DNA from: Azolla caroliniana
Lineage: Eukaryota > Plantae > Polypodiophyta
NCBI GenBank assembly: GCA_043228905.1
Contig: JBHGNT010000016.1
Span: forward strand, 15,314,001-15,378,000
Direction of reading: 5' to 3'
DNA length: 64,000 nt
This document shows positions 1 to 62,164 of this stretch, piece after piece. Both the position numbers and the translations under genes were made by a program. Position 1 is the first letter of the stretch. The number at the start of each line of letters is the position of its first letter. The notes under the pieces were generated by a model, which saw only the letters and a list, made by a program, of their open reading frames with translations, was not told where the DNA came from and ran no database searches.

Positions 1-10
1 ACACAGAAAA

Positions 11-4042: not shown

Positions 4043-4052
4043 AGGGGGAGTT

Positions 4053-9030: not shown

Positions 9031-9280
9031 GCTAGGAGGCTTAAGACTGGCGTTGAACCGATTTGGTTCTAAATAATTCCTTGTGCCTCCTTTTATAGTG
9101 TTCTCAGGAGTACTCCTGAAGTTTCTAGAATATTCTAGAGAAATCTGGAATATACATCAATTTTTTATAGTAAAACTTAAATGAAAATAATATCCTTCGT
9201 ATTACAAAACATAGCCTAAGGGTAAGAGCTCGACCCATGTAACATAAGGTCATGGGTTTGAGTCTTGCCATATCATGACA
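9031..9280 (-). repeat. Truncated 3' LTR of chromovirus copy 1
   Basis: Matches 19781-20025; similarity stops at ~9031. Confidence 0.88.
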
Positions 9281-11739
9281 CTTTCCTCACTTTAAAACGA
9301 CGAGTGGCATGAGTCGTTTTGGATTGAGGATCAGGTTTGTCTGGATATTGACGATAGAAGTCTTCAAGAAGACCACGAGCATTGGCCACATTCTCTATCG
9401 GTTCCCAAGTACACTCGTTGGGACTATATCCTAGCCAATCGACTAAATAGTAGATCTTGTTGCGAACAATCTTGGAATCGAGGATGGCGGCAACCTCGTA
9501 CTCAGGTCCATCTTCAAGCTCGATCGGGGGTGGAGGTTGTTTAATACGACCTGGGATGGTGGTGTCTTGATAGGGTTCGAGGAGAGAACTATGAAACACC
9601 GAATGTATCCGAAGTTGTGGAGGTAGATCGAGACGAAAAGCGACATCATTAATTTTTCCGATAATACGGAAAGGACCTAATCGTCAGTAATCCAACTTCT
9701 CGCATGGGTGAGTAGTCTTGACGTGTCGTCGTAGTAGCCACACCCGATCTCCAATGTCAAAACTGGATGGAAACCGATGACGATCCGCGTAAACCTTGTG
9801 TGTTTGTTGAGCTTGTTGTAGATGAGTAGATAAATCTGCTTGTATCTTATGTAGCCGCTCCAAACGATCCTCTGCACAAGAAATTGTAGGTAACTCTAGG
9901 GTTTCAAATAGACACCACCGAGGGTGAAAGCCCATGTAAGCATAAAATGGTGTCACCTTTGTCGATGAGTGGACAGAGTTATTATACGCAAATTCGGTGA
10001 AGTGGAGAATATCCGCCCAGTCATCTTGATGATAGCTTAAAAAGCACCGAAGCTACTGCTCCAGCGTTTGATTTGTTCGTTCTGCTTGGCCGTGTGTTTG
10101 TGGGTGGTAGCCGGAGGAGAGGTTACAAGTGACCTAAAGCATTTTAAAGAGGTGCTTCCAAAACTTCGAGACGAACTGGGGTCCGCGGTCGCTAATGATA
10201 CTATCGGGAAGGCCATGATTCCGACATACTTCACGCATGACCATTTCGGTGGTTTCTTCACTGGAGATTTCCTTAGTACATGGCAAGAAATGGGCCATCT
10301 TTGTATATCGATCTACTATTGTTAAGATTGCATCGAATCCCTTAGAGACCGAAAGATCTGTGATGAAATCTAGGGCAATGGATTGTCATGGCTTGCTTGG
10401 AATTGGTAATGGTTCTAATAAACCATATGGATGATGCCTTGGCATTTTTTCTCTACAACATGTATCACAAATCCGAACAAAATCTTTGACAAATTGTCGC
10501 ATATGGGGCCACCAGAACGATCCTTGTACTAAATCTAGTGTTTTAGTACACCAAAATGCCAAATTGTATATGTGTCATGAGAGTTTTGGACTACTTGAAG
10601 GTGACAAGTACCATTAGGAACATACAAGAGTTTCTTAAAGAATAGTAATCCATCATGACATTCGAATTGTCAATAGTCCGCACCTGGTTGTTGCGACTCT
10701 GAACAAGATGCTCGAGAGGGATCAATTTGTGCTAGAATGGCTTGAGCGAAAACATCTGTCTTCAAGTTCTCACGTATGGTATCGATAATGTGGGAATCCA
10801 GGGGCATACCGAAGACCTACGTTGCTTGCAATCGTGCCGGTCCCAAGATTACTTGCTTTTGGTTATCGAAAGCCTTCTCGCCGGGACACAGTGCTAGATA
10901 CGAACGTCGTGATAATGCATCTACCTTCCCTTGTTGCTTCCCAGGACGATATGTAATTTTGAAGTCGAAACGAGTGAGGAATTGGGGCCACCGAGCTTGA
11001 CGTTGATTTAACACACGAGCATTCTAAAAGTAGGCAAGGTTTTTGTGATCACTGAATACGATGACTTGATGAGAAGACCCCTCTAGAAAATGTCTCCATT
11101 GCGTAAAAGAGTCCACTATTGTTAATAGCTCCTTATCATGAATTTCATAGTTGATTTCCGTGGCGTCAAACTTGCGTGAATGGAAAGCCACAGGATGGAG
11201 CTTTTCATCATCGCCTTGTTGAGATAGAATGCTACCCAAGGCAAAATCTGACGCATCTGCTTCAATGATGAATGGTTTTTCTGGATCAACCGGAGCTAAA
11301 ATAGGAGCTAATGTAAATGCCTTCTTAAGACTCTCAAAAGCAATGTCTGCTTCTTCAGACCAAATGAACGATTTTCCCTTCCTGGTAAGTTGTTAGAGAG
11401 GCAGAACAAGCTTTGAGTAATCCTGTATGACCTTGCGGTAAAAATTGGCAAAGCCTAAAAAGCATTGCACATCTCACAACGAACGCGGAGTCTACCACTC
11501 TACCACCGTTTTAACCTTAGATGGATCCATGGAGATGCCTTCCGAGGAAATGACATAGCCCAAAAATATTACTTGGTTGCACCTGAAACTACATTTTTCC
11601 AGTTATGCATAAAGACCATGTTCTCGAAGTCGTTTTAGTACTAACAGTACATGAGAATCATGCTCTTCTTGGGTCTTCGAATAAACCAGTAGATCATCCA
11701 AATAGATGATCAAAAAATCATCCAAGAGATCTCAGAATA

Positions 11740-12491
11740 TGTTGGGAGACAGGTCCCTCCGGATGGGAAGGGAGAAGAACAGTGCTAACGAACAAACTCC
11801 GGATGGGAAACGGTATGAGGAGTACCCGGCTACGGAGAGCCGGATGATACAGGCCCGGTGTGAACCGGATGAGTAGTACCCGGCTACGGAGAGCCGGATG
11901 ATACAGGCCCGGTGTGAACCGGATGAGTAGTACCCGGCTACGGAGAGCCGGATGGTGCAGGCCCGGTATGAACCGGATGAGGAGTACCCGGCTACGGAGA
12001 GCCGGATGGTGCAGAACCGGTATGAACCGGAGGAAGAGACATATTCGTAAATATGTTTCTGAGAGCCCATTGTGGCTACATTTGTAAATAGCCGAAAAGT
12101 CATATTAGTATAAATATGACTTAGGGCAAACTTTTAAGTTGTGGCTGTCATTTTCTTGTTGATGCAAGAAGAAGAAGAGAGAGCACGTAACATTGTACAG
12201 AGAGAGAGAGAGAAAGAGGTCGTTGCCTCTGTTGTAACCGCCGCCTGTGGCGAAGATCGTGAGCACGAGATCGTTGCCTCCGTGAACTCACTGTTTTGTA
12301 CATTCATACATAGTGACAGTTTGCAGCCTGTGGGCTGCCGTGGTTTTTCCCCCTAGTTTGGGGTTTTCCACGTTAACCTCCTGTGTACCATTTCTCTTCT
12401 TTGTGTCGTGTTCTATTTCCCATTTTCTGTGTATGAAAAGAATCTCGGTTGTGGCCGAGTCTTGCGCATAAGGAACGACAAGTTCCCATCA
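11740..12491 (+). repeat. 5' LTR of copia-2, with four 54-bp U3 tandem repeats
   Basis: Unit agtacccggctacggagagccggatg... starts at 11821, 11875, 11929 and 11983. Confidence 0.95.
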
Positions 12492-12520
12492 AGTGGTATC
12501 AGAGCAAAACGACACAAAAA

Positions 12521-15500
12521 ATGGACGAATCGTTTGGCGGCATGTTCAAGCTCACCAGCTCCAACTATTCAGTGTGGAAGTCGAAGATGAGGGACATGCT
12601 CGTAGTTAAAGACCTCTAGCTGCCGGTTCAGTTCGGGGACAAGAGACCGGACAAAATCGACGCCGCGATATGGGAGGTGATGCACATGAAGACAATGGCG
12701 TACATACGGTGCTTCATCGACATGAGCCTATACAACAACTTCAATGAAGAGAGCAAGGCTCATGAGCTCTGGGAGAAGATCGGCATTATGTTCCAGAACA
12801 AAAATGTTGTCAATCAGGTGTCGGTATTCCAGAAGCTAGTAAGACTCCGGTACCAAGATGGCTCCAGCATGGCGGAGCACATGAATGCCTTCCAGGGGCT
12901 GATACACCAGACAACGTCATTGGAAGTACCTCTTGTCGACGAGGTACTAGCGCTACTCCTGCTCGGTTCCCTCCCAGATAGCTGGGAGACGTTGGTTGTC
13001 ACTTTGGGCAACGCCGGGCCGGAAGGAAAACGGTTATCCCTAGCAAGAGTAAAGTCGAGCTTGCTAGATGAGGAGGCGCGTCTGAAGGATAAAGATACGA
13101 GCTCCGACTCCAAAGCGCTCCTTACCGAATCGGAACGCGGAAGACAAAGAAACCGTAGTCCTCAGAACCGGGAGAAGTCGGGGACACGGTCAAAGTCAAG
13201 GGGGAGACCTACTTGCTTCTATTGCGGCAAGCCGGGACACTTCCAAAAGAACTGTCAGCATTTCCGTAAAGACAAGGAAACCGACGGTACCGATTCGAAG
13301 CAAACCCCGGACCGGAACGGTAAAGACCGGAGGGGGCCGGACCGGAAGGGAACAACGGCAATCGCGGCAAGTGAAGAAGAGTTGATGCTCATCACCGAGG
13401 AGAGTGAGATGAACCTTGCCGGCGACGAGATGACCTGGGTGGTAGACTCCGGAGCGTCGTTCCACCTTACCCCGGACCGGAAATGCTTCTCATCCTACTC
13501 AGCCGGTGACCACGGCTGTGTCTGGATGGGGAATGAAGGTACATGCCGAATTATCGGCATAGGAGACGTGTGGCTGTCAACACCAATAGGATGCAAGTTG
13601 CTGCTGAAGGATGTCCGACACGTTCCGGAGGTTCGTCTGAACCTGATATCAGCCGGTCGGCTAGATGATGAAGGCTACACGGGTAGCATCCGGAACGGTG
13701 TCATGAAGTTCAGCAAAGGGAGCCTGATTGTGGCTCGGGCCCGGAAGGTAAACACACTATACCTGATGAATGCCCGGTTATGTCCGGAAGAAGTGAACGT
13801 GGCATCCAACATTGCCGGTGAGCTGTGGCACAAGAGGCTGTGTCATATGAGCAAGAAGGGGATGAAGAGGCTTGCAGATGACAACCTCATTCCAGTGAAG
13901 ATCGTGCACTTGGAGAAGTGCACTAATTGTCTGGCCGGTAAGCAGAACCGGACCTCCTTTCGATCAAGGCCACCGATGACACGTAATGCACCACTGGAGT
14001 TGGTGCATACGGATGTGTGTCAAGTAGACACGAAGTCACATGCCGGAGCGCAGTACTTCGTGACGTTCATAGATGACCACAGTCGGAAGTTGTGGGCCAC
14101 ACCGTTGAAGACAAAGGATCAGGTGTTATCCGTCTTCAAAGAGCTCCACGCAAGAGTGGAAAGAGAAACCGGCCGGAAGCTGAAGACGGTTCGAGCAGAT
14201 AACAGAGGAGAGTACCGGGGGCAGTTCGAGGAGTACTGCCGCTCGAAGGGAATCCGGCTCGAATTTACCGTGCCGAAGACGCCGGAACTAAACGAACTGG
14301 CCGAGAGGATGAACCGGACCATAATGGAGAGGGTGCGGAGTATGCTAGCACATGCAAAACTACCCAAGAAGTTTTAGGCTGAGGCACTGTCGACGGCGAC
14401 ATATGTGATAAACAGATCACCCTCAGTACCCTTGGACGGAGACACGCCACAGAGAGTATGGACCGGTAAGGAAGTGTCCTACCGGCATCTGAAGGTGTTC
14501 GGGTGTCTCGCGTATGTGCATGTAGCAAAGGACCGGAGAGGGAAGTTAGATCCAAAGACCCGGCCATGCATATTCCTCGGTTACGGTGGCGATGAGTTCG
14601 GCTACCGAGTGTGGGACCCGGTCAACAAGAAGGTATTCCGGAGTCGAGATATTATCTTCATGGAGGACAAGACGCTCGCCGACTGGGAGTCGGAGAAGAA
14701 GATAATGAACTCTGAGTCGACCGGTAAGGATAGACTCTACGATGAGCAGACCCAACCGGTAAGAGACCGGTTAGCACTCAAGGAACTAGCCTGTTACGGT
14801 GAGGATACCGAATCGGCAGAAGAAGAGGTAGAGGAAGCTGAGACCGGAACCGGCCAAGACCCCGAATCGGATTCGGATGAAGAGCAAATGGAGGAGCCGG
14901 TTACCGAAGCCCGAAGACGGAGATATCCTCTCAGAGAGAGAAGGGCGCCCCGGAGATTTCCGGATGCAGAGCATGTTCTGCTAACCGATGAGGGGGAGCT
15001 GGAAAGCTTCGAAGAAGTGAAGGAAGACACCCACAGCCGAAAATGGTTAAGTGCCATGCAGGACGAGATGGATTCCCTGCATGAGAACCATACATACGAA
15101 TTGGTGGAGTTGCCGAAAGGAAAGCGGGCATCCCGAAACAAGTGGGTGTACAAGTTGAAACCGGGAGATGCCGGCAACCCCCCGAGATACAAAGCCAGGA
15201 TTGTGGTGAAGGGGTTCCAGCAGAAGAAGGGCGTGGACTTCGACGAGATATTTGCCCCGGTAGTAAAGATGACCTCCATCCGGACGGTGCTGAGTATAGC
15301 TGCAAGCATGGACCTCGAGGTAGAGCAGCTGTACGTGAAGACGGCATTCCTTCACGGCGACCTCGAAGAGGAGATCTACATGCAGCAACCGGAAGGATTT
15401 GTGGAGAAAGAGAAAGAGCACCTGGTATGCCGGTTGAAGAAGAGCCTATATGGACTGAAGCAGGCTCCCCGGCAATGGTATCGGAAGTTCGACTCCTTCA

Positions 15501-16567
15501 TGACCGATCAAGGGTACCACAAGATGCAGGCCGATCACTGCGTGTTTGTGAAGAAGTTCGAAGGAGGTGACTTCTTAATACTCCTCCTATACGTGGATGA
15601 CATGTTGATCGTCGGACGTGACCAAGTCAAAATATGGATGCTGAAGAAGGCTCTCAACCGGACCTTCTCAATGAAAGACTTGGGTTCGGCAAGACAGATG
15701 TTGGGGATGCACATCATCCGTAACCGGAAAGCGAAGCAATTATGGCTGTCACAGGAGAAGTACGTGACAAAGGTGCTTCACCGGTTCAACATGTCAGAAG
15801 CGAAACCGGTCGGATCGACACTTCCGGTAAACTGCAAGCTATCCGGTAAGCAAAGCCCGAGGACGAAAGCAGAGAAGGCGGATATGATGAAGATCCCATA
15901 TGCCTCTGTCGTCGGAAGCTTGATGTACGCAATGGTTTGTACTCGACCGGACATTGGATACGCAGTCGGAGTGGTGAGCCGGTTTATGAGCAATCCCGGC
16001 AAGGAGCACTGGAACGCGGTCAAGTGGATACTCCGGTATTTGAAGGGCACTTCAAATATGTGTCTCCGATTCGTCTCCGGAAAACCTCAACTGGACGGTT
16101 TCACCGATTCGGACATGTCGGTTGATGTGGATACCAGCCGATCTACATTCGAGTATGTGATGACATATGCAGGGGGAGCTGTTTCGTGGCAGTCGAGGCT
16201 GCAGAAGACGGTTGCATTGTCAACCACAGAGGCGGAGTACATGGCGGTTGTGGAAGCCGGCAAGGAAATATTATGGATGAAGGACTTCATCGGAGAGCTC
16301 GGTATACGGCAAGAGGAATACCGACTCTATTGCGACAGTCAAAGTGCCATCCACCTTGCTAAAAATGCGGCCTACCATTCCCGGACGAAGCATATCCAGC
16401 GGAGGCATCACTGGATCCGGGAAAGAGTAGATGACCAGGAGTTCGCACTGATGAAGATCCACACGGCCGAGAACGGGTCAGATATGCTGACCAAAGTGCT
16501 GACACCCGACAAGCTGGATGCATGCCGGAAGAGAATCGGACTGGTAAGACACCCCATGCCGGAGTGA
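12521..16567 (+). pseudogene. Near-intact copia gag-pol with two premature stops
   Basis: ATG at 12521. In-frame TAG at 12617 and 14375, both at Trp positions. ORFs 12677-14377 and 14405-16567 carry CCHC, DSGA, integrase, YVDD and RNase H. Confidence 0.93.
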
Positions 16568-16577
16568 AGGGGGAGTT

Positions 16578-17215
16578 TGTTGGGAGACAGGTCCCTCCGG
16601 AGTACCCGGCTACGGAGAGCCAGATGATACAGGACCGGTGTGAACCGGATGAATAGTACCCGGCTACGGAGAGCCGGATGATACAGGCCCGGTGTGAACC
16701 GGATGAGTAGTACCCGGCTACGGAGAGCCGGATGGTGCAGAACCGGTATGAACCGGAGGAAGAGACATATTCGTAAATATGTTTTTGAGAGCCCATTGTG
16801 GCTACATTTGTAAATAGCCGAAAAGTCATATTAGTATAAATATGACTTATGGCAAACTTTTAAGTTGTGGCTGTCATTTTCTTGTTGATGCAAGAAGAAG
16901 AAGAGAGAGCACGTAACGTTGTACAGAGAGAGAGAGAAAGAGTTCGTTGCCTCTGTTGTAACCGCCGCCTGTGGCGAAGATCGTGAGCACGAGGTCGTTG
17001 CCTCCGTGAACTCACTGTTTTGTACATTCATACATAGTGACAGTTTGCAGCCTGTGGGCTGCCGTGGTTTTTCCCCCTAGTTTGGGGTTTTCCACGTTAA
17101 CCTCATGTGTACCATTTCTCTTCTTTGTGTCGTGTTCTATTTCCCATTTTCTGTGTATGAAAAGAATCTCGGTTGTGGCCGAGTCTTGCGCATAAGGAAC
17201 GACAAGTTCCCGTCA
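16578..17215 (+). repeat. 3' LTR of copia-2
   Basis: Near-identical to 11740-12491 except one fewer 54-bp unit and a 60-bp deletion. Confidence 0.95.
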
Positions 17216-19577
17216 GAATATATCATTTGTCATGTGTTGGAAGACTATTGGAGCATTAGTGAGGCCGAATGTCATGACCGTATACTCGAAGTGCCCATAT
17301 CTGGTATGAAACGTCGTCTTCCATTCATCTCCTCGTCGGATCTGTACGAGGTTATACGCTCCTCATAAGTCGATCTTTGTGAAGAACCTTGCACCATTGA
17401 TCCGTTCTAAAAGACTTGAGATAAGGGGAAGTGCATACCTATTCCTAATGGTGACTTTATTCAATCCATAATAATCGATGACGAGAGGAAGTGATCCATC
17501 CTTTTTCTTGACGAAGAAAATGGGTGCGTCGGCTGGAGATTTCGAATGTCGAATGAAACCATTTGCTAAATTCTCCTCTATATAGGCTCGAAGCACTTCT
17601 AGCTCGGTTGGTGAAAAATTGTAGATCAGTCCTCATGGAGGCTCTTTTCCCGGTTGTAAATCGATGGGGCAATCATACGGTCGATGGTGAGGAAGCGAAT
17701 TAGCTCTTACTTTATCGAACACATCGGCATAATGACGATACTTCTCTAGAAGTTGAACAATGAACTCCTCTTTATTTATACTGGAGGGGTTTACTGATAT
17801 TGCGAAGAGAAACATTTCTTCCTTGCGTCCTTCCTCACGCAACTGATGTAGCGAAATGGTTGCAATCTTATGAGTAGATCCTCGGGCTTGTCGACACCGT
17901 ATTTCTCTTGTTCTCCAATCTATGGCTGGGTTATGTAATTCGAACCATGGTAATCCCAAAACAATGGGATGTTCTAGGATACTAATTATATTAAATGACA
18001 CTACACACGCTAAGTTATCTAGGACAATATTAACGGGTTCTGACTCTTGTATAATATTCCCGGAAGCAATGGGACAACCATCAATGACTACTATAGAGGT
18101 TGGACATGGGAGTTTCTTTAGGGATATTTGATGAGCTTGGGCAAAATTCCTATCCATGAAGCAAGAGTTGGCTCCGGAATCTAAGAGTGCTAAGACATGT
18201 ACTAGAGGAGTACTTTTAGTACTAACCATTACTTGAGCTAAGAACACATTGCTAACTTGATTAGAGGAAATGGAACCACTAATGGGTTGCACAGATCTAG
18301 GGTTGTCCAACCAAACGGCTCCTATTTTGGCTGAACTTAATCGTTTAACTCTTCTTCTAGTTGACTAAGGATTTCAAATTTGTTTGAAAGGCTTGGGCTA
18401 TTCGGAATATCAGACAAACATAGAGAAATAGACTCGAGTTTAGTATTATTAGTACTAGCGGTTATTTGATTTACCTGCCTTTTTAGCCGATGGGGGCAGT
18501 TCACTGCAATATGCCCTAGTCCACCGCAATAAAGACATAATTGATTTGCCCTATGTTGCTGCTTTTCTTCTTCCGATAGTGGTCCGCGACAACGTGTGGT
18601 GTCGATTTCCATTGGAGTCGAAGTATTTGTTGGAGACGTATTGAATGACTCCCTTGGGAAAGGCTTTGCTATGATTGAAGCATAGGTGGGCTCTGATCTT
18701 GTCCTTGGCATTTGGAACTAACATTCCGAATGTCATTCGAAGAGGCGATTATCGCATCGCACCGCACGATTGATTGCTTCTGTCAATGACTTTGGCTCCT
18801 CAGGGAAAGTTAAGGGTAAATCTTTAACATCATTACGTAGGACAAAACGAAATTGCTCCATTAGTGTCTGGTCATCCTAGGGAATATCGGTGGCGAGAAG
18901 ACAGAAATCTGCAGCATAAGCCGAGGCCGGCCGCTCACCTTGGCACAACCTTCGGATTTTGTTGATTGTTGTTCTAACACCGTCGGTATCTCCAAAACAT
19001 GTTTTAAACTCAGTAATAAACTCTTCGAAATTATTTAACAAGGGAGAGCTTTTTTCTAACAGGGGGGCGAACCATGCCAAAGCCGTGCCACTAAGTAGAG
19101 TGCCTACTAGTCCCACTTGTGATGCATCGATGGGATATCGAGAAGGATGCATTTGAATGACTAATCATATCTGATTAAGGAATCCTCTAAACTGCGATCG
19201 CGTTCCATCGAATTTCATGGCAAGGCCAATCTTGGGTTCTTTATGAATCCCTTGTGTACTGGGTCCTTGGTGTTGCATCACTACTAAGGTTGCTTCGAGT
19301 TGTTGCACGCGTACCACTAGTTCCCCATGTTGTTGTTGCATATGCTGCTTTTCTAAGGAGATTTGTTGAAGATTCCCCAACAACCATTGATTTTCTTGTT
19401 CCAAAGCAAGGAACTTCTCTTTCAAGCATTGCAGCTCTGAGAAAACAGATTGATATTCTTGAGCGCTAACAGTGGCCATAGTATGAGAGAAAACAGGAAT
19501 AAGAGATTAGTATGAAGGGAGGGAGAAGTAAGAAGATAAAGGAAGAGAATGAAAGAGATGAAAAAATCGGTTCAAAC

Positions 19578-20025
19578 TGTCGGGAGTAGTACTAAGACAG
19601 AGAAGTACTGTTAGGAACAGTACTAAAACAAAGAAGGAATTAGTACTAAAAGATGAGGATTAGTACTAAGGGAGGTGTAGAACTCTTGAGAGAAGGAATG
19701 AGTGAGTGAGTGAGTGAGTGAGAGAGAGAATGAGGATAACAAAAGATATATATATTATGTTAAGGGAATATACAATAGTAGCTAGGAGGCTTAAGACTAG
19801 CGTTGAACCGATTTGGTTCGAAATAATGCCTTGTGCCTCCTTTTATAGTGTTCTCAAGAGTACTCCTGAAGTTTCTAGAATGTTCCAAAGAAATCTAAAA
19901 TATACATCAATTTTCTATAGTAAAACTTAAATGAAAATAATATATTTCGTATTACAAAACATAGCCTAATGGTAAGAGCTCGACTAACATAAGGTCATGG
20001 GTTCGAGTCTTGCCATATCATGACA
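19578..20025 (-). repeat. 5' LTR of chromovirus copy 1
   Basis: Reverse complement of 61732-62159 (tgtcatgat...gaca). Confidence 0.92.
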
Positions 20026-21010: not shown

Positions 21011-23128
21011 TCAATTCTAATACCATTATCTACTAAGGCATCCTTAATTAAAAGACCTTTAATGGTTACCGAAATAGTGGGTCGAATATCCGTTCGATCT
21101 TTCACTTGCACAATCTTCGCACAATGTAATGTCTTTATACGTTGTTGTATACTTGATACACGTCCCTACTCCTTTTTTAGTGATGGAGAAAGTTGAAGAA
21201 ATTGTGGCCAAGTGATGCAAGGTCCACTAGAGATTAGCTCTTGCTTGAGAGCAAATGGTTCCACACCTTTCCCCATTGGCATATCATCAATTTTAATCTT
21301 TCTTCACGGATGTTTCTTTCTAGGTCCATCCTCCAAGTTAGTCTCATTGGCCTTCTTCTTTTATTGAGAGTTACTAGACTCTCCTTCCAACTCTTTATTT
21401 TTATGTGATAGTCAATCAGATTTACCTTAGGGGTAATTGTTGGAATTTGCACTAAAGTACTTTCCCCTCCTACCACATGGTTGTTGAGTTGGTGAAAGTT
21501 GTTTCTAGTGTTGTTTTGATTACTCTGAAATTGATCCATGCCTTGACCCCAATCACCTTGTTGTCGTGAAGGACATCGTGTAGATATATGTCCCTCAACA
21601 CCACATGTGTAGCACACAATCACTCTCCTTTGCCTTGGAGCATCTCGAATTTGACTTACATTAACATTTGCTTGCATGTTTTGTATTTTTCGAGTAATTT
21701 CATTGAGACATTGATTTACTTGCTCCGAGAAACCTCCTTCCACCTTAGGTTGAGTAGCTTCTTGCATCACCAAAACATTAGGTTGATATGTCGTAAAAAC
21801 ATTACAGAATACTTGATCTCCATACACAATTGGTGATTGTTGAAGAATAGGATATTTAAATGTTGCAACCATTGAATCCATTCACGCTTGTAGAACTTGC
21901 TTTTGTCTATTGTAGGCTTGACAAGTTTGGATAAGTGCTTGGAAAGTTGTAGGATCCTTTAGATTTTCCTCCAACGCAAAGTGTGGACTTAATCCCGCTT
22001 TGAAGGCGGTCCACCTTAAACCATTCATCCTCCATTCCACCACATAGTCGAATACACGTATTGTAGAGGTTAATAAATTCCCTCTCATAATCGATATACT
22101 CCATTGTTGTTGACATTCGTAAACGAAAGAGTTCCTCTCGCACTTCCCTCACATTTCGGCATCGAATATACTTAGCTTTAAATTGTTTTACCAATAGTTT
22201 GTAATTCAATTGTTGGTTTGGTAGCAAGGACTCATACCAATCCCTTGCCATCCATAAAAAGTAGCCACCAATAGAGGAAGCTTCTCAAAATCCATCGTTT
22301 TCCCTCTTGATATTGCATGATGTTCAAAGGCGGACAAGAAAGCACCCGCATCTTGGACCCCATCACCTGCAAAGGCAAACTAAAAAGCCGTATTGGCTAA
22401 AAACAAGACCTTCCAATTATGTGAACTGAATCTACCCTCCTTGGGGTACAAAGAGAATTGACCCTCCTTGGAGAGCCAAAATGATGGAGAGATATAGAAA
22501 AAGATAGAGAAGAGAAGTGGAAGAGAAAGTAATACTTTAATATACTTTTAAGATAACAATACCATCTTCTTAGACTCAAAAAGTAATAACCCCAAAGAAC
22601 TACCTTAATCTCAATGACATTAATTCATTATAGCCTTTCCTTCTTCTCTCTTTCTTCTACTAATACTCCTCTCACTTCTTCTAGCCTTCTTATTCCTCCC
22701 CAATTGCTAAGAATACCCTCCTGTTTATAGGTTTTTGGTTGCGTTATTCTTGCTTTTTTCTTTTCTTTTCTTTTCTTTTTACATATTCTCGAGTTTATGT
22801 AAGGCATTTTTTTATATCACCACTTCTGTTTTGTCATCTCAAATTTGCCAACAAGAAATCTCTGTTTGTCAACTTTCTTATGAATCTTTTCTTTTGAAAT
22901 TTGGATATGAGATGAAGAAGTTATGAGCTTTTTTCCTTGCCCTACGTTTTCTGCCTTTTTCTTTTTTCCTGTTTTTTCTACTTTTGAAAAACGCATCTAA
23001 CTTTATATCCCTTCAAGTTTCTTCATCTTTTAACTCTTGAACCTTTCATATCGTGCTTTATTCTTATACACCTTAGCATCCAATGTATTTGCCACGGTCT
23101 TTTCTAACGAGCAAAAATTGACATCACA
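21011..23128 (-). mobile_element. Old gypsy remnant: gag plus possible 5' LTR
   Basis: Retrotrans-gag-like ARDWYESL (21907-22251) and CCHC CYTCGVEGHISTRC (21234-21881). Putative LTR start tgtgatgtc at 23128 with TATA at ~22725. Boundaries uncertain. Confidence 0.65.
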
Positions 23129-24230: not shown

Positions 24231-26139
24231 TTACCTCAACAATGAAGTGAAGGTGTTCCACATGTCAGCATCATTGCATGATGATGATGGTGACTCTAAT
24301 GCATTGATAAAGGGTTGGGATTGGCCATGGAAATTATTAGTATTTACATTATTTGAGTTATAATTACTCTCATGAGGACTAGATACATTGTTCGAGGAAT
24401 TGGGTCTATTAGTAATTATATCAATGTTGATTTTATTGTTAGTAGTAGAATTTATATCGATAGTATGATTGTAATGCTTACTATGATCCAAGGCATGAGT
24501 ATAAGCCCATTGTTCTACTAGTGGATTGACAAGGTAATTACTACAATCATATCGATCAAAATCACCAAGGTGGTGGTCTTGATTAACATGATTATATAAG
24601 TTGGGAATAGTAATGCTAGTAAAGCCCTCATCATCATGGCTTCCATGATAAGGGAAGAAAAGAGAAGTATTGTTGGTCATATGTTCGGTATTACTAATAG
24701 TAATAGTAGTGTTCTTGTTATTGATGTTTAAATTCGCATACTTGTGGTGATTCACATCAACATTAGAGCCCAACACCATTGGGTCATTGTCGTATGCTAT
24801 GGCCGGCGTCTTGCATTTGTTAATACTAGAAGATATGCTAATGTTGTCGACATTGCTTGAATTCGGGTGAGAAAGATCTCTTGGTGACCTCCGTTGTTCT
24901 GCTTCAATGCATCTTGATACCCTAATTGGGCTCTCTAGTCGAGGTAAGGGCAAGAAACTTGTACAAGGAGCTAGTTGATCTTGATTATGAGTATCGTTTA
25001 ATAATGGATAATTATGATCATGAACTAGACATTGATCATGTTGAAGTTGTCCTCGTTGTTGCTCGTCTTGACCATGGACTAATTTTGCATCACATTGACT
25101 TCCACAATTTTCTTCATTGTCACGAGAATTGTTTTCATCATGTATTGTCTCTTCTTTGCAATGATATGACCCAAGGGTCTGAGCTCCATCAATATAAGGT
25201 TCTTCAGCATTCTTTGGTGGATTTAGAAGGAAAAACATCTCCAAAATGTTAGCCACTTTCATGGAGGGGAAAATAAGGTTCATTACATTGTTTATTTGAT
25301 TTGTCCTTAGAATGAAGTCGTTTACACTCTTGTTTGTGTACACCACCACTCCCAAGTATTCAAGGCCAAATTTTCGGCCTCACATTGCTTTTGCTTTTTC
25401 TAAAACCCTCTAAATGCAACTTGAATCGCAATTCATTACAACTAGCTTTTATACATGAATGTGTATTTAGGTTCTCGAACCATTTTGGACTATGTACCTA
25501 TATATAGTGACACACATATGTATCCTGCAACACATACACATACATACACACACATACACACACATACATATACCTGGTTGTATGATTCAATGTTTGCAAT
25601 AGAGACTAGGCGATTGCTTGAATATTGCTCCAACTTAGCGAATTTGTCAATTGCATCATTGTCATTGTCAAATATGGTTGTTGGGCAAACACTTTCTAGT
25701 CGCGTAAGTACACGACGTTTACAAGTCTTGGTCATGTTAAGATTGTTATGGACTTCAATATGGTGACTGTTGGCATATTGATGTTGCATTCGCTTCTTGA
25801 AGACTCGACACACTGCCCATCCGTCGTCTTCCTACAAGTAATTAACTAGATCATGGATTTGGATACTTAATCTACCATTTTATGTAGATGATAGTAATCA
25901 CCATACTTGTTCTAGTGGTATTAATCTTGAGATCTCATTGTTTTTCAGTTAATTTTAGCTTATAATGAGAACCCATAATTACTTACTCTACTAAAAATAG
26001 GACAATTGAAATTAATGTATGGTTGGTCTCGTTATTCATATTTTATGTACTTATGGTGGTACTACAATATAACACTCACCACTAACGTTAGTCTCAAGTA
26101 ATGAGAATCAATTGGTATATGCATGCATGCATACATACA

Positions 26140-30613: not shown

Positions 30614-33600
30614 TGTCAAAGTTAATATGCGGAAGCTTTGACAAACCGGTTTATCCGGATAGCAATAGAAAACAGAGAATAAAGGTTTAATTGAAGCTTA
30701 GGAACAGAGAATACACATGAGAGACAGAGATCAGAAAACATAAACTCGATTCAAAATAATAGCACTCTATAACACTCTGTACATAGAATGTACTCAGAGG
30801 GCACTTTTATACAAGTCCTTATACGGACTGACAAGTACTTCAATGTTCATACGAGCGACTGGCACGGACTCCGAGGAATCTGCCTATGTACTAGGCTAGA
30901 TTCGTAGGCCTCTAACGGCTTGCCAGTTACAGTCGTTTGCTATTGCAACTCCGGCACTTGTAAACTCGTTGTCTCCTCCGTGTTGGCGTCAACTTCGGCT
31001 ACCTCCTCGTATACTTGGCCTTTAGTAGATTCAACTCCTCCGAATCAAACAGTTGAATCGAATCGACTGTCTCCGATTCGTTCCCGCTCTTGTTTGAGTT
31101 GGCTTTCTACAATTCGTTCCTGATCCCTGACCCTTCACGACATCGGACCATGTCCATGTCTTAGTCTTCTTCCGGTCGGCTTTGTCCTTCTTGACTCTGC
31201 CTCTATCGCCACTTGTTCCGACTTGTTCGAATATGCCGACTTCTTCAGTCAACCCAGCTTCCTTTTCCTTCTTGTCTCCACATGTCTTTGTTCTTTCTTT
31301 CTCTCCGGCTCCTTGTCTGGTGCCATTACCTATTTCCATTCTCCCCCTCAAGTGTGGCACGTCGAGATGTTGACCGAGCATCTCCAAAAAGTGTTGCAAC
31401 TTGTCCGATTCGAGCGGCTTGGTGAAGATGTTGGCAACCTGCCGATCCGTGTGAACATACCGAAGTTCAACTTCACTACTTAGGACCCGCTCACACACAA
31501 AGTGATAATGTACTTCTATGTGCTTTGTCCGAGCATGAAATACAAGGTTCTTAGTGAGTTGTATGTTGCTTACATTGTCACAATAGATCACGATCGGGGT
31601 CGGTACCTCGATCCGGAGGTCTTGCACCAGTTGCCGAAGCCATATAGCTTCACAAGTGGCAATGGTAGTGCCCTGGTACTCAGCTTCCGTGCTCGACAGA
31701 GCTACGGTTGGCTACTTTTTGTTGTTCCATGCAACAACCGCACTACCAAGAGAAAACATGTATCCAGAGGTGGATTGGCGATCTGATGCATCACCAGCCC
31801 AGTCAGCATCTGTATACCCGACGAGCTTTTCAACTATACCGTGTCACTATAACAAACCCTTATCCTTAGTGCCACTAACATACCGTAGTATCCAGTGTGC
31901 ACATTGAAGGTGCTCCAAGGTCGGCTTCTGCATGAATTGGCTAATCACTCTGACCGGATAATTGATGTCGGGTAGGGTGATAGTTAAGTAGATAAGGCTT
32001 CTGACAATTTTTTGGAACCATGTCTCGTTGCAAATCGGTTCGGAGTCAAGACATTGCTTCAGGTTCTAGTCCAGCAGAGTGGAGATCGATCGGCAATCCG
32101 TCATGCCGAACTTGTACAACATATTCAGCACATAATGTCGTTGTGAGAGCAATATGCCGTCGAGGTTATGGATCACCTCGATCCCAAGGAAATAATGAAG
32201 GTCCCCCAGGTCCTTCATTTCAAATGTGTCTGACAGTTGGGACTTCACTCCACTGATTTCATCGAGCCTAGGTCCGGTGATCACTAGATCATCTACATAT
32301 AACAGGATATATACCAGACCGTCCGAACCTTTCCAAACGAATAGTGAAGAGTCGAATTTTGAGGCCGCAAACCCCATCTTACGCAACTAGTGCATGATCT
32401 TCGAATTCCAAGCACGAGGGGGCTTTTTCAGGCCGTAAATCAACTTCTTAAGTCGGCACACTGCCGACTTGTTCATCTCCGATTGAAATCCAAGGGTTGG
32501 ATCATATAGACCTGTTCTTCAAGGTCACCTTGAAGAAACGCATTCTTCACATCAATCTGATGAAGATGTCATCCCCTTGCCGCAACAACCGCTAGCAGCA
32601 CACAGACCATTGTCATCTTCGCTACCAGAGCGAAGGTCTCATCATGGTCAATTCCTTGGGTCTGTGCGTATCCTATTGCCACTAATCGAGCCTTAAACCA
32701 GTTGACCAAACCGTCAACATGATACTTGACTTTATGCACCCACTTGCACCCGATCAGTTTGCAATGTTGGGGAGGGTCAACCAGGTCCCATGTGTTGTTG
32801 GCATCGAGTGCCCGCATTTCTTCCTCCATAGTGGCATGCCAGTGTGCGTTATTTGCCGCTTCTATGTAGCTCTCGAGCTCACGCACTTCCACCACTTTCA
32901 TCATGTACGCATAGTGATGCGCCATGTACTCATTTTATCTGTACCTCTTTACGTGGTTCTTCTGGCAGGTTGATCAGCGTAATTTCTCGTTAGATGATTT
33001 GAGGACCCTCGTGGCCGGCTCAGACTTCATTCCTGAAGGTCCGTCCTCGTTCTTCCTCGAGTTGGATTCGCTTTGATCTGACTCGTCTCGACCGGTGTCC
33101 TATTCCAGCATCTTCTTCTTCCCCTTTTCCTTGCATGTGAACCGTCTCCTTGGTTCCTTAAGGGGGGAGAGCACAACTGAGTCTCCACTACTCACCGGCT
33201 CTTCATTGGACTGGTCATTCCGACTCAGTCACTCATGCGGCTCACTCGAACTTGTTTTGTTTGGGGGTTATAGCACTTATAACCCTTTTGCTCATGTGAG
33301 TAGCCAACCAGGATGCACACCTCTAACTTCGGGTTCAACTTTCTCCACTTCTCATCTGGCACATGTGTTGGGAAACATGTCCCTCCGGATGGGAAGTGAA
33401 GTACCGTGTTGGCGAGTATCTCGGCCGAGGACGAAACCGAAATCGAAATCATAATAGAAAACCGAAATCATTTCGAAAGACTATAATTGTAAATAGTCTG
33501 AGATGCCCTTGTGGGCTATACTTGAAAATAGCCAGAAAGTTGCTTTTGTTTATAAGCAACTAGGGCAACTTTTAGTAAGTAGTTAGTTGATCATTATTGA

Positions 33601-55755: not shown

Positions 55756-56063
55756 TGTCATGACCTTATGTTACATGGGTCGAGCTCTTGACCATTAGAC
55801 TATATGTTGTAATACAAAGGATATTATTTTCATTTAGGTTTTACTATAGAAAATTGATGTATATTCCAGATTTCTCTGGAACATTCTAGAAATTTCAGGA
55901 GTACTCGTGAGAACACTATAAAAGGAGGCACAAGGCATTATTTCGAACCAAATCGGTTCAACGCTAGTCTTAAGCCTCCTAGCTACTATTGTATATTCCC
56001 TTAACATAATATATATCTTTTTTTATCCTCATTCTCTCTCTCTCTCTCTCTCAACTCTCTCAC

Positions 56064-56805
56064 ATTGAATACATGCTTAAGGTTCAAAAAAGTCCCTCGC
56101 ATTGACTTCCTAGAATTGCGTGGGAAGTAAGCAAAAAGATCCAAAAGACGCATAAAAGCAAAATTTTGTGTTCCGGTTGGATGCAAGATATAGAAAAATG
56201 GTTTGGTAGATGGGATGCGAGACACTTGCTTCATGATGCATCATTAGATTCCTCTGTAAATGAGGCCTTTTTGCAACGCCAATGTATCATGACATGGGAC
56301 AAATGTGGAGGCTTGCACTTCACACATTATACTACACATGTTGCACCTAACTACAAAACCATATTCTTTGCGGAACGGGGAAATCGTACACATCGATACA
56401 TGTTAGAGCCCATACTGTTATCTGCCATTCGAATCGTTGCTTCCATGCGACTTAGCTCACATGCATTGTGATGTGAAACAGGGCGTTGGGGCACAAGTGA
56501 TGAGAGTGGTCGACTATGCACACTTTGCCCTAAACAAGTTCGCGAGTCTGAGTATCACACTTTGATACAATACTCTACCTTTGATCATATTCGACCATGC
56601 TTTCCACATCTCTTCGACCGATCCCAAAATTTGCATGAATTCCTCTCACAACCACAATGTGCACTCTCAATTGCAACATTCATTGGTAAAGTTCTTGAAC
56701 ATCGAGAGTCACTACTCACTTTCACATGTATCACGTGAAATGTAATATTTTTGGTCTCATAGGTCATATTTGACCTCTGAAGACGATAATATAATCTATC
56801 TATCT
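56064..56805 (+). mobile_element. 5'-truncated RTEX-like LINE inserted in the chromovirus 5' LTR
   Basis: Absent from the other LTR copies. MRLSSHAL..ETGRW..RLCTLCP..ESEYH motif, (ATCT)n tail, flanked by tctcac direct repeats. Confidence 0.8.
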
Positions 56806-56938
56806 GTCTCACTCTTTCATTCTCTTGAGAGTTCTACACCTCCCTTAATACTAATCTTCATTTTTTAGTACTAATTCCTTCTCTATCTTAGTACTGTTCC
56901 TGACAATACTTCTCTGTCTTAGTAATGCTCCTGACAGT

Positions 56939-56950
56939 TTGAACCGATTT
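56939..56950 (+). promoter_or_regulatory. Self-priming-type PBS (ttgaaccgattt)
   Basis: Starts 2 nt after the LTR end. Exact reverse complement of 55950-55961, which begins 33 nt after TATAAAA at 55917. Also present in copy 1 at ~19564-19575. Confidence 0.8.
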
Positions 56951-58161
56951 TTCTCTCCTTCCTTCTCTTCCTTTATCTTCGTACTTCTCCCTCCCTTCAT
57001 ACTAATCTCTTATTCCTCTTTTCTCTCATACTATGGCCATTGTTAGTGCTCAAGAATATCAATCCGTTTTCTCAAAGTTGCAATGCTTGAAAGAGAAGTT
57101 CCTTGCTTTGGAACAAGAAAATCAACGGTTGTTGGGGGATCTTCATCAAATCTCCTTAGAAAAGCAGCAGAAGCAACAACAACATGGGGAACTAGTGGTA
57201 CGCGTGCAACAACTCGACGCAGCCTTAGTAGCGATGCAACAACAAGGATCCAGTACACAAGGGATTCATAAAGAACCCAAGATCGACCTACCCATGCAAT
57301 TCGATGGAACGCGATTGCAATTTAGAGGATTCCTTAATCAGGTACGATTAGTCATTCAAATGCATCCTTCTCAATATCCCACCCATGCATCACGAGTGGG
57401 ACTAGTAGGCACTCTACTTAGTGGCACAACTTTGCCATGGTTCGCCCACTTGTTAGAAAAAAGCTCTCCCTTGTTAAATAATTTCGAAGAGTTTATTACC
57501 GAGTTTAAAGCCTGTTTTGGAGATACTGACAGTGTTAGAACAACAATCAACAAAATACGAAGATTGCGCCAAGGTGAGTGGCCGACCTCGTCTTATGCTG
57601 CGGATTTCCGTCTTCTCGCCACCGATATTCCCTGGGATGACCAGGCACTAATGGAGCAATTTCGTTTTGGCCTACGTAATGATGTTAAAGATTTATTCTT
57701 AACTTTCCTCGAGGAGCCAAAGTCATTGACACAAGCAATCAGTCGTGTGGTGCGATGCGATAATCGCCTCTACGAATGACGTTCAGAACATCAGTTACAA
57801 ATGCCACGGACAAGATCGGAGCCCACCTACGCTTCAATCGTAGCAAAACCTTTCCCAAGGGAGTCATTCAATACGTCTCCAACAAATGCTCCCACTCCAA
57901 TGGAAATCGACACCACACGTCGCTGCGAACCACTATCGGAAGAAGAAAAGCAGCGACGCAGGGCAAATCGATTATGTCTTTATTGTGGTGGACCGGGGCA
58001 TATTGCAATGAACTGCCCCCATCGCTGAAAAGGCAAGTAAATCAAATAACCGCTAGTACTAATAGTACTAAACCCGAGTCTATTCCTCTAGGTGTGTCTG
58101 ATAGTCCTAATAGCCCAAGCCTTTCAAACAAATTTGAAATCCTTAGTCAACTAGAAGAAGA

Positions 58162-58206
58162 GTTAAACGATTAAGTCTAGCCAAAATAGGAGCCGTTTGG
58201 TTGGAC
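58162..58206 (+). promoter_or_regulatory. Putative -1 ribosomal frameshift signal (G_TTA_AAC plus stem-loop)
   Basis: Lies at the gag/pol overlap; conserved in copy 1 (18305-18349, minus strand). Confidence 0.7.
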
Positions 58207-61200
58207 AACCCTAGATCTGTTCAACCCATTAGTGGTTCCATTTCCTCTAAGCAAGTTAGCAATGTGTTCTTAGCTCAAGTATTGGTTAGTACTAAAAGTA
58301 CTTCTCCAGTACATGTCTTAGAACTCTTAGATTCCAGAGCCAACTCTTGATTCATGGATAGGAATTTTGCCCAAGCTCATCAAATATCCCTAAAGAAACT
58401 CCCATGTCCAGCCTTTGTAGTAGTCATTGATGGTCGTCCCATTGCTTCTGGGAATATTATAGAAGAGTCAAAACCCATTAATATTGTCCTAGATAACTTA
58501 GCGTGTGTAGTATCATTTAATATAATTAGTATCCTAGAACATCCCATTGTTTTGGGATTACCATGGTTTGAATTACATAACCTAGCCATAGATTGGAGAA
58601 CAAGAGAAATACGGTGTCGACAAACCCGAGGATCTACTTGTAAGATTGCAACCATTTCGCTACATCAGTTGCGTGAGGAAGGACGCAAGGAAGAAATGTT
58701 TCTCTTCGCAATATCAGTAAACCCCTCCAGTATCAATAAAGAGGAGTCCACCATTAAACTTCCAGAGAAGTATCGTCATTATGCTGATGTGTTCGATAAA
58801 GTACGAGCTAATACACTTCCTCACCATTAACCGTATGATTGCCCCATCGATTTACAACCGGGAAAAGAGCCACCATGGGAACCGATCTACAATTTGTCAC
58901 CAACCGAGCTAGAAGTCCTTCAAGCATATATAGAGGAGAATTTGGCAAATGGTTTCCTTCGACATTCGAAATCTCCAGCCGGCGCACCCATTTTCTTCAT
59001 CAAGAAAAAGGATGGATCACTTCGTCTCGTCATAGATTACCATGGGTTGAATAAAATCACAATCAGGAATAGGTATGCACTTCCTCTTATCTCAAGTCTT
59101 TTAGAACGGATCAATGATGCAAGGTTCTTCACAAAGATCGACTTACGAGGAGCGTATAATCTCGTACAGATCTGACCAGGAGATAAATGGAAGACTGCGT
59201 TTTGCACCAGATATGGGCACTTCGTTCAGCCTCACTAATGCGCGAGTAGTCTTCCAGCACATGGCAAATGATATATTCCGATATCTCTTGGATGATTTTT
59301 CGATCATCTATTTGGATGATCTACTAGTTTATTCGAAGACCCAAGAAGAACATCATTCTCATGTATTGTTAGTACTAAAACGACTTCGAGAACATGGTCT
59401 TTATGCAAAACTGGAAAAATGTAGTTTCAGGCGCAACCAAGTAGAATTTTTGGGCTATGTCATTTCCTCAGAAGGCATCTCCATGGATCTAACTAAGATC
59501 AAAACGGTGGTAGAGTGGTAGACTCTGCGTTCATTGGGAGATGTGCAATGCTTTTTAGGCTTTGCCAATTTTTACCGCAAGTTCATACAAGATTACTCAA
59601 AGCTTGTTCTGCCTCTCACACAACTTACCAGGAAGGGAAAATCGTTCGTCTGGTCTGAAGAAGCGGACATTGCTTTTGAGAGTCTTAAGAAGGCATTTAC
59701 ATCAGCTCCTATTTTAGCTCATGTTGATCCAAAAAAACCATTCATCATTGAAGCAGACATGTCAGATTTCGCCTTGGGTAGCATTCTGTCTCAACAGGCG
59801 ATGATGAAAAGCTCCATCCTGTGGCTTTCCATTCACGTAAGTTTGACGCCGCGGAAATCAACTATGAAATTCATGATAAGGAGCTATTAGCAATAGTGCA
59901 CTCTTTTACGCAATGGAGGCATTTTCTAGAGGGGTGTTCTCATCAAGTCATCGTATTCAGTGATCACAAAAACCTTGCCTACTTTCAGAATGCTCGTGTG
60001 TTAAATTGACGTCAAGCTCGGTGGGCCCAATTCCTCACTCGTTTCGAATTCAAAATTACATATCTTCTAGGGAAGCAACAAGGGAAGGTAGATGCATTAT
60101 CACGACGTTCGTATCTAGCACCGCGTCCCGGCGAGCCGGCTTTCGATAACCAAAAGCAAGTAATCTTGGGACTGGCACGACTGCAAGCAACGTAGGTCTT
60201 CGGTATGCCCTTGGATTCCCACATTATCGATACCATACGTGAGGACTTGAAGACGGATGTTTTCGCTCAAGCCATTCTAGCACAAATTGATCCCTCTCGA
60301 GTATCTTGTTCACAATCCCAACACCCAAGTACGGATTATCAACAATTCGAATGTCATGATGGATTACTATTCTTTAAGAAACTCTTGTATGTTCCTAATG
60401 ATACTTGTCGCTTTCAAGTAGTCCAAAACTGTCATGACACATATACAGTTGGGCATTTTGGAGTACTAAAACACTAGATTTAGTACAACGATCCTTTTGG
60501 TGGCCCCATATGCGACAATTTGTCGAAGATTTTGTTCGGACTTGTGATACATGTTGTAGAGAAAAAATGCCAAGGCATCATCCATATGGTTTATTAGAAC
60601 CATTACCAATTCCAAGTAAGGCATGGCAATCCATTGCCCTAAATTTCATCATAGATCTTCCGGTCTCTAAGGGATTCGATGCGATCTTAACAGTAGTAGA
60701 TTGATATACGAAGATGGCCCATTTCCTACCATGTACTAAGGAAATCTCCAGTGAAGTAACCGCCAAAATTGTCATGCGTGAAGTATGTCGGCATCATGGC
60801 CTTCCCGATAGTATCATCAGGGACCATGGACCCTAGTTCGTCTCAAAGTTCTGGAAGCACCTCTTTAAAATGCTTAAGTTCACTTGTAACCTCTCCTCCG
60901 GCTACCACCCACAAACAGACGACCAAGCAGAACGAACAAATCAAATGTTGGAGTAGTATCTTTAGTGCTTTTTAAGCTATCATCTAGATGATTGGGTGGA
61001 TATTCTCCACTTCGCCGAATTCGTGTATAATAACTCTGTCCACTCATCGACAAAGGTGACACCATTTTATGCTTACACAGGCTATCACCCCCAATGGTGT
61101 GTATTTGAAACCCCAGAGTTACCCACAAATCCTTGTGTAGAGGATCGTTTGGAGCGGCTACGTAAGATACAAGTGGATTTATCTACTCATCTATAGCAAG

Positions 61201-62164
61201 CTCAATAAACACACAAGGTTTACATGGATCATCATCGGCTTCCATCCACTTTTGACATTGGAGATCGGGTGTGGCTACTGCGACGACACTTCAAGACTAC
61301 TTGCCCATGCGAGAAGTTGGATTACCGGTGATTAGGTCCTTTCCGTATTATTGGAAAAATTAATGATGTCGTTTTTTGTCTCGATCTACCTCCACAACTT
61401 CAGATACATCTGGTGTTTCATAGTTCTCTCCTCAAACCCTATCAAGATAGCACCATCCGAGGTTGTATTAAACAACCTCCATCCCTGATTGAGCTTGAAG
61501 ATGGACCTGAGTACGAGGTTGCCGCCATCTTCGATTCCAAGATTGTTCGCAACAAGCTCTACTATTTAGTCAATTGGCTAGGATATAGTCCCAGTGAACA
61601 TACTTGGGAACTAATAGAGAATGTGACCAATGCTCGTGCTCTTTTTGAAGACTTCCATCGTCAATATCCAAACAAACCTGGTCCTCAATCTAAAACGACT
61701 CGTGACAGTCGTCGTTTTAAAGGGGGGATAGTGTCATGATATGGCAAGACTCGAACCTATGACCTTATGTTACATGGGTCGAGTTCTTGACCATTTGACT
61801 ATATGTTGTAACACAAAAAATATTATTTTCATTTAGGTTTTACTATAGAAAATTGATGTATATTCCAGATTTCTCTAGAACATTCTAGAAACTTTAGGAG
61901 TACTCCTGAGAACACTATAAAAGAAGGCACAAGGCATTATTTCGAACCAAATTCGTTCAACGCCAGTCTTAAGCCTCCTAACTACTATTGTATATTCCCT
62001 GAACATAATATATATCTTTTGTTATCCTCATTCTCTCTCTCTTTCACTCACTCACTCTTTCATTCTCTCAAGAGTTCTACACCTCCCTTAGTACTAATTC
62101 CTTCTCTATCTTAGTATTGTTCCTGGTAGTGCTTCTCTGTCTTAGTACTACTCCTGACAGGAAT

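Follow-up and report, generated by a model that had tools for sequence, protein, structure and literature searches.

The LTRs of one clade of autonomous chromoviruses carry at their outer tips, antisense to the element, a conserved tRNA-derived module with an A-box and a B-box at tRNA-like spacing. We are confident that this module is real, derived from a tRNA and under selection. As to its function, the best overall explanation, which we hold to be somewhat better than an even bet, is a putative TFIIIC/Pol III type-2 promoter site acting as a barrier at the edge of the element. In the window (the whole stretch of DNA analysed, 64,000 nucleotides), self-comparison identified two decayed copies, A and B, of one Tcn1-like, self-priming chromovirus, whose broken frames gave Pfam matches to gag, zinc knuckle, RT, RNase H, integrase zinc finger, SH3 and chromodomain. 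Their features are as follows.

9031..20025, minus strand: element A, a decayed copy of the same family as element B (self-comparison and Pfam)
19578-20025, minus strand: 5' LTR of element A
truncated at 9031, minus strand: 3' LTR of element A
about 11741-17212: Copia element nested in element A
55756..62159, plus strand: element B, a decayed chromovirus with gag, PR, RT, RH, IN, SH3 and chromodomain
55756-56936 (with an insert of about 745 nt) and 61732-62159, plus strand: LTRs of element B
61332..61739, plus strand, and 9276-9683, minus strand, in copy A: integrase SH3 and chromodomain frame, the LTR-blind anchor for relatives
61719..61731, plus strand: polypurine tract, immediately 5' of the 3' LTR of element B
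56937..56950, plus strand: PBS of element B, complementary to the self-primer motif of its own LTR and not to a tRNA 3' end
19564-19577, minus strand: PBS of element A, complementary to the self-primer motif of its own LTR
55950..55962 and 61949, plus strand, and 19802-19814, minus strand: self-primer motif, about 30 nt past the TATA box
61878..61922, plus strand, 55879-55923 and 19841-19880: GAAnnTTCnnGAA array (which we take to be heat-shock-element-like) and TATA box
19955..20025, plus strand: module at the outer tip of the 5' LTR of element A (A-box 19962-19972, AGGTC 19992-19996, B-box 20000-20010)
9205..9280, plus strand: module in the 3' LTR of element A (A-box 9212, B-box 9255, one decayed base per box)
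61732..61808, minus strand: module in the 3' LTR of element B (A-box 61801, B-box 61757, spacing 44)
55756..55808, minus strand: module in the 5' LTR of element B (A-box and AGGTC kept, B-box gone)

Element B is 6.4 kb long, including 0.75 kb of insert, is flanked by a 5-bp target site duplication with one mismatch (AGAAT/GGAAT), and has many stops and frameshifts in its coding frames. An earlier note on this DNA had reported an antisense A-box and B-box at the edge of the LTR of element A, and these are indeed found there, reading TAGCCTAATGG at 19962 and GGTTCGAGTCT at 20000 on the plus strand; the equivalents that it gave at 9212/9255 (+) and 61801/61757 (-) are also in place, each box of the former with its decayed base. 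The spacing of 43-44 nt that it assigned to undeleted copies agrees with the 43 nt measured for 9212/9255 and the 44 nt for 61801/61757, while in the 19962/20000 copy a deletion of 5-6 nt has shortened the spacer, leaving 38 nt. The loss of the B-box by deletion in the LTR at 55756 proved to involve 23 nt between two CATGA repeats. All four LTRs start with TGTCATGA, at 20025(-), 9280(-), 55756(+) and 61732(+), on the strand opposite to the boxes, which thus face outward. Pairs of A- and B-boxes with at most one mismatch each, 30-60 nt apart, occur three times in the window, and two of the three belong to these LTRs; 10 block shuffles gave 0.2 per 64 kb. The third, an A+B-like pair at 21205-21267 (+) with one mismatch in each box and a spacing of 52, lies outside any LTR, has no match to the tip model described below and is within chance.

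The layout is that of a type-2 Pol III promoter, by the consensus that we take as standard, with the 5' half of the A-box weak. The derivation from a tRNA, which the earlier note had proposed, was borne out by a model built on sequence alone from 19 tips: when the E. coli K-12 chromosome was searched with it at E<=10, 18 of the 19 matches overlapped tRNA genes in the same orientation, and the other was a duplicated 3' half of tRNA-Thr. Among the loci retrieved in this work the model matched clade tips that had not been used to build it, as well as a tRNA-Leu gene and the LTR tip L030:140-204, and it matched nothing in the 40 loci outside the clade. The module at 19955..20025, also outside the training set, scored 44.5 bits. 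The cloverleaf has decayed, as had been claimed: 49.6% of the cells are paired versus 48.7% after shuffling (acceptor 35%, anticodon stem 40%), and neither ARAGORN nor Rfam detects a tRNA in the window, in two tips or in 20 related loci. Conservation of the cloverleaf was rejected, and the module lacks the cloverleaf and anticodon of a tRNA gene. Relaxed ARAGORN was unspecific, with scattered calls on both strands and in non-carriers too. The most tRNA-like copy seen, L030:133-228 (+), again outside the training set, has a T4 run; its A-box is canonical, and its acceptor, D and T stems survive in part.

The relatives were selected blind to LTR sequence, through the SH3-chromodomain frame, which was aligned with 42 of the 120 homologues listed. 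The 79 loci fetched were the best 79 of 508 confirmed stretches, and in them the 3' LTR directly follows the anchor; 60 tips of at least 95 nt were scored, 7 were shorter, and in 12 loci no tip was found. Boxes were scored against fixed A and B consensuses, with at most three mismatches in total and any spacing from 30 to 60 nt. An antisense A+B pair is present in 25 of the 31 scorable tips of the clade versus 1 of the 29 outside it, and the sense-strand control gave a pair in 1 of 60 tips, so that the outward orientation seen in the window is borne out in the clade. Although the wider range was allowed, the spacing is 43-44 nt in 23 of the 25 paired clade tips, and AGGT, which was not scored, stands at tRNA positions 44-47 in 22 of them. 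The six clade tips that lack a scoring pair are L013, L015, L020, L029, L033 and L034, of which L020 and L033 still match the tip model.

On the tree (64 rows, namely 62 loci and two window rows; 131 columns; midpoint root; L060 omitted as too short), the carriers fall in one clade with support 100/97, comprising 34 rows, 29 of them labelled carriers (L002, L020 and L033 by eye). The non-carriers inside it are scattered, and some of them are short or decayed. A single series of assemblies supplied most of the clade's loci. In the sister pair L037/L043 there is at most a remnant of the module. The earlier note had placed the module in the LTR consensus of a family; it is indeed conserved, but it is older and more widespread than was supposed, being clade-wide. 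Seven carriers (L003, L008, L010, L016, L022, L024 and L028) have stop-free pol frames of 1,115-1,235 aa, and RT, RNase H, integrase and chromodomain were matched in all four carriers tested; as these frames are intact, the module rides on autonomous elements. In viral contigs no loci were found by protein or by LTR pattern, and the single match to the box-derived pattern was a tRNA-Leu gene. In L008:4200-9244, L024, L028, L021 and L037 an LTR is directly followed by a PBS and a second gag/pol, reflecting either tandem arrays of two elements with three LTRs or collapsed assemblies.

Conservation was measured as pairwise identity by tRNA position among 11 lineage representatives. Identity is 0.86 in the A core, 0.90 at positions 44-48 and 0.90 in the B-box, the A and B values being partly so by construction because the rows were anchored on those columns. 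Elsewhere it is 0.34 in the anticodon arm, 0.36 at positions 62-73, 0.38 upstream, 0.44 at positions 49-51, where the 11 lineages show 8 different triplets, and 0.46 at positions 8-13; the 5' half of the A-box is weak, with T frequently in place of G10. In an unanchored comparison of the first 330 nt, no 6-mer is shared more widely than TCGAAC, present in 10 of the 11 lineages (in 9 of them at the tip), against a maximum of 6 in 300 shuffles. Four-fold degenerate pol sites are 26-50% identical between the main lineages, where composition alone predicts 26-32%, five close pairs being higher; these sites and the spacer (34%) are thus near saturation. The boxes, clearly more conserved than the flanking U3, the yardstick that the earlier note had proposed, and than these neutral sites, are therefore constrained. 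A T4 run at tRNA positions 73-81 occurs in 5 of the 11 lineages (null mean 1.7, p = 0.012) and is absent from the other 6, including the window family, where, in the 3' LTRs, the first T4 comes 62 nt beyond the start of the B-box, and in the 5' LTR it depends on the flank. Within the family, a comparison of contigs, in the 40 of 126 rows listed, has the A-box side shallower and more variable than the B-box side, and we give it no weight as a test of conservation.

Two further details of the earlier note hold for the window family but not across lineages. The hairpin that it described is real in all four family copies examined (z of -2.9 to -4.0) and is absent from 7 other tips (z of -0.9 to +0.9), and was therefore rejected as a conserved function. 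Likewise, the tRNA-equivalent 3' end falls about 4 nt from the LTR end in the window family only, the distance from B-box to tip being 15-39 nt across lineages.

The order of the LTR is the same across lineages: TGTCA tip, antisense module, AT-rich stretch, enhancer block, TATA box, self-primer and R-U5. The Pol II promoter, in the window the GAAnnTTCnnGAA array with its TATA box, thus lies inward of the module, and its start is probably near the self-primer motif, which follows the TATA box by about 30 nt. The enhancer block differs by lineage while the module stays: the window copies (19841-19880, 55879-55923 and 61878-61922), L008 and L018 have the array, whereas L016, L021, L024, L028 and L033 have CATGCA/CCAAGTGG repeats, presumably ABRE/RY-like, and this swap may mean different stress induction. 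The PBS and the self-primer covary in L008, L016, L021, L024 and L028, which are the five relatives whose PBS can be seen (four loci, one window family). No tRNA primer is therefore needed, as the earlier note had surmised. Self-primer and PBS of L008 differ from those of the other four with no change in the module, and pairing of the tip with the self-primer was rejected, the B-box of L008 being unchanged where its self-primer has changed. In the window (55940-55962) and in L016, L021, L024 and L028, the self-primer makes up the 3' arm of an inverted repeat that is conserved and spans the presumed start, so that its RNA copy from the 3' LTR could fold back and be masked.

The surviving blocks are close to what TFIIIC reads, and the features that a tRNA needs as an RNA are gone. 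A- and B-boxes recruit TFIIIC (PMC13437025), and the motifs at the LTR tip make it likely that the module is a TFIIIC/Pol III site. A single capture in the ancestor of the clade is the probable origin of this tRNA-like module: a tRNA gene, or the head of a tRNA-SINE, would have been inserted antisense into U3. T8/R9, ARYGG, AGGTY and GGTTCRA have been kept at 43-44 nt as the stems decayed and neutral sites came to their present saturation. TFIIIC would bind these blocks, and in the lineages with T4 Pol III would make an antisense RNA of 75-85 nt. By analogy with yeast tDNA barriers, the complex would keep a nucleosome-free edge, and it would do so at both ends of each insertion because U3 is copied into both LTRs. 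The main role of the module may be that of a barrier of tDNA type, through which the Pol II enhancer and promoter farther inward would stay accessible within heterochromatin, although we propose this tentatively. Three points favour the edge-barrier reading: the promoter is antisense and so cannot make genomic RNA, unlike those of Cassandra and Helenus; a tDNA barrier requires TFIIIC and Pol III but works in either orientation (PMC2040200); and RLG1 of Physcomitrium, which has a chromodomain, sits in heterochromatic TE islands and yet is transcribed (PMC7466625).

Some observations run counter to this proposal. Positions 8-13, at 0.46 identity, make a weak A-box by the consensus used, and AGGTY (44-48), though no less invariant than the B-box, falls outside the core B-box consensus. 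The spacing required by TFIIIC is looser than a fixed 43-44 nt, and the invariance of AGGTY together with the fixed spacing could point to a role at the RNA level. The T4 run is missing from 6 of the 11 lineages, the window family among them, and six of the 31 clade tips lack a scoring A+B pair. Finally, L037/L043 and SM-Tcn1 replicate without a clear module, which is thus not required by all self-priming Tcn1-like elements. PolyA reads from a related organism, from libraries that were polyA-only, cover the LTR tip at a depth of 1-5 with no pile-up of starts, which speaks neither for nor against the proposal.

The product or the start site of Pol III, and not a barrier, might be what matters, through a short antisense RNA tuning either silencing or the output of Pol II, or through a landing pad for Pol III-seeking elements. 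We think this unlikely. The T4 run stands right behind the module where it is present, the window family folds into its strong hairpin, and foamy-virus U3 yields Pol III precursors of miRNAs (PMC3993851), all of which would fit such an RNA; but no RNA structure or sequence is conserved between the boxes, and 6 of the 11 lineages lack the terminator. The landing pad fares no better, as the two insertions into these elements in the window (about 11741 and 56063) are not just upstream of an A-box.

Slightly less likely again is a docking of host tRNA at the RNA level, in which the U3 tip of the genomic RNA would anneal to the D-loop, variable loop and T-loop and so aid dimerisation, packaging or strand transfer, as in Ty3. 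It has the merit of explaining the kept blocks, AGGTY included, which correspond to tRNA loop segments at exact tRNA spacing, and an antisense tRNA-Lys3-like gene, reportedly present in HIV-1 U3-R, would favour it. The likeness to the bipartite PBS of Ty3, also a Ty3/gypsy element, is that U3 sequences there are complementary to the T and D arms of tRNAiMet; Ty3, however, is tRNA-primed and its U3 sites pair with one tRNA (PMC5371799), whereas here there is no tRNA PBS and positions 49-51 vary freely. The 8 triplets at these positions, together with the freedom of positions 8-13, would break a duplex with any one tRNA. Moreover, no tRNA can bridge the two ends when both window copies, and the five relatives whose PBS can be seen, prime themselves, and the change of self-primer in L008 with its B-box intact indicates that the tip does not track the primer.

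Exaptation of the remnant as Pol II transcription-factor sites, forming part of the enhancer and having nothing to do with TFIIIC, is very improbable: the module does adjoin the enhancer block, and a weak 5' half of the A-box and an extra AGGTY would suit it, but all three blocks retain the geometry of a tRNA and agree with positions that are invariant in tRNAs, and enhancer motifs turn over between lineages where the module does not. A functionless passenger, or repeated recapture from tRNA genes or SINEs, is largely refuted and less probable still, for although single copies decay (9212/9255, the deletion at 55756, L013 and L034) and the partial acceptor, D and T stems of L030:133-228 would fit a younger capture, the boxes remain 86-90% identical with four-fold sites near saturation and the stems gone, and the carriers form one clade on the tree.

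The elements match Tcn1-like chromoviruses in their features and in a by-eye comparison with SM-Tcn1. The Tcn1 clade is described as self-priming, with a 5-bp TSD and a length of 5.5-9.4 kb, and in plants as known from mosses and club-mosses only (Neumann 2019, PMC6317226), by which a moss-like plant would be the probable host; our elements share with it the order of gag and pol, the C-terminal chromodomain, the 5-bp TSD, the length of about 6 kb and self-priming (PMC2864245, PMC6317226). SM-Tcn1 of Selaginella resembles them by eye in gag, chromodomain and PBS style (Novikova 2010), and its LTR shows, also by eye, no module; the passages describing it report neither a PBS nor self-priming, but the bases 3' of its 5' LTR look complementary to a motif in the LTR, in the same layout, so that it probably self-primes (PMC2864245). 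In the passages on Tcn1 and RLG1 consulted (PMC2864245, PMC6317226, PMC7466625) there is no mention of a tRNA-like module in the LTR.

The earlier note knew of no description of this combination, and we likewise found none of an antisense tRNA promoter in the LTRs of Tcn1 or other autonomous chromoviruses in the largely open-access literature covered; the note had, however, missed closer precedents in the Helenus TRIMs, the Pol III genes of foamy-virus U3 and the U3 sites of Ty3. In the Helenus TRIMs (TRIMp3; Kojima 2024, PMC10886601), as here, the LTR holds tRNA-derived sequence conserved around boxes A and B and non-functional as a tRNA, and a Selaginella member even has AGGTC before the B-box, as in our module. 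Yet Helenus elements are non-autonomous, 311-1263 bp long and without coding capacity, whereas our carriers are autonomous chromoviruses of about 5.5-6 kb; Helenus is tRNA-primed and the carriers self-primed, with a PBS matching their own LTR; and in the 3-4 Helenus LTRs compared the tRNA is in sense and proposed to transcribe the element, where here it is antisense, at the outer tip and beside a separate Pol II promoter (PMC10886601). As these three defining features of Helenus are absent from the carriers, they are not Helenus members. The same paper, in an analysis confined to TRIMs, remarks that "not a few" Repbase LTRs hold tRNA-like parts, and its account of Cassandra offers a likeness in the Pol III promoter motifs kept inside a plant LTR, although Cassandra is non-autonomous and its 5S (type 1) promoter makes the RNA of the element itself (PMC10886601). 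Foamy viruses resemble the carriers in having Pol III promoter elements in the U3 of an autonomous LTR retroelement, but their boxes are noncanonical and give structured miRNA precursors, in contrast to the tRNA-like geometry, antisense orientation and lack of conserved RNA structure seen here (PMC3993851). With yeast tDNA barriers the shared principle would be a TFIIIC/Pol III complex that blocks the spread of heterochromatin in either orientation, those barriers being, unlike LTR tips, host tRNA genes at fixed loci (PMC2040200).

Our data extend the capture of Pol III promoters from miniature to autonomous LTR elements, and in a different geometry. Chromodomain retrotransposons are thought to insert into heterochromatin, yet they need transcription to spread, and a conserved module of tDNA type at the edge of the LTR is a precise and mutable candidate for staying expressible there. 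It would also provide a test case for TFIIIC barriers in plants, since the passages of a plant review that cite tDNA barriers do so for yeast and animals only and give no plant example (PMC9540200). The window family is very abundant in all four sequencing runs of related organisms, so that module sites could rank among the most numerous B-boxes of the host genome. One might go further and propose, as somewhat less likely than not, that a clade of heterochromatin-seeking autonomous plant retrotransposons has domesticated a tRNA gene as a portable barrier: two putative TFIIIC sites would flank each insertion and keep its promoter open, and the most abundant repeats of the host would thereby have scattered thousands of insulators through heterochromatin.

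Among the other contents of the window, Pfam recognises nothing in an unrelated ORF of 382 aa at 24231-25379 (-), nor in the repeat of about 745 nt (56063-56808) that is inserted in a (TC)n tract of the 5' LTR of element B; judged by eye, an LTR in L029 is flanked by this repeat too. Much of the window is taken up by several Copia elements, nested and inverted (1-4609, 11741-17212, 30614-36418 and 42775-51047).
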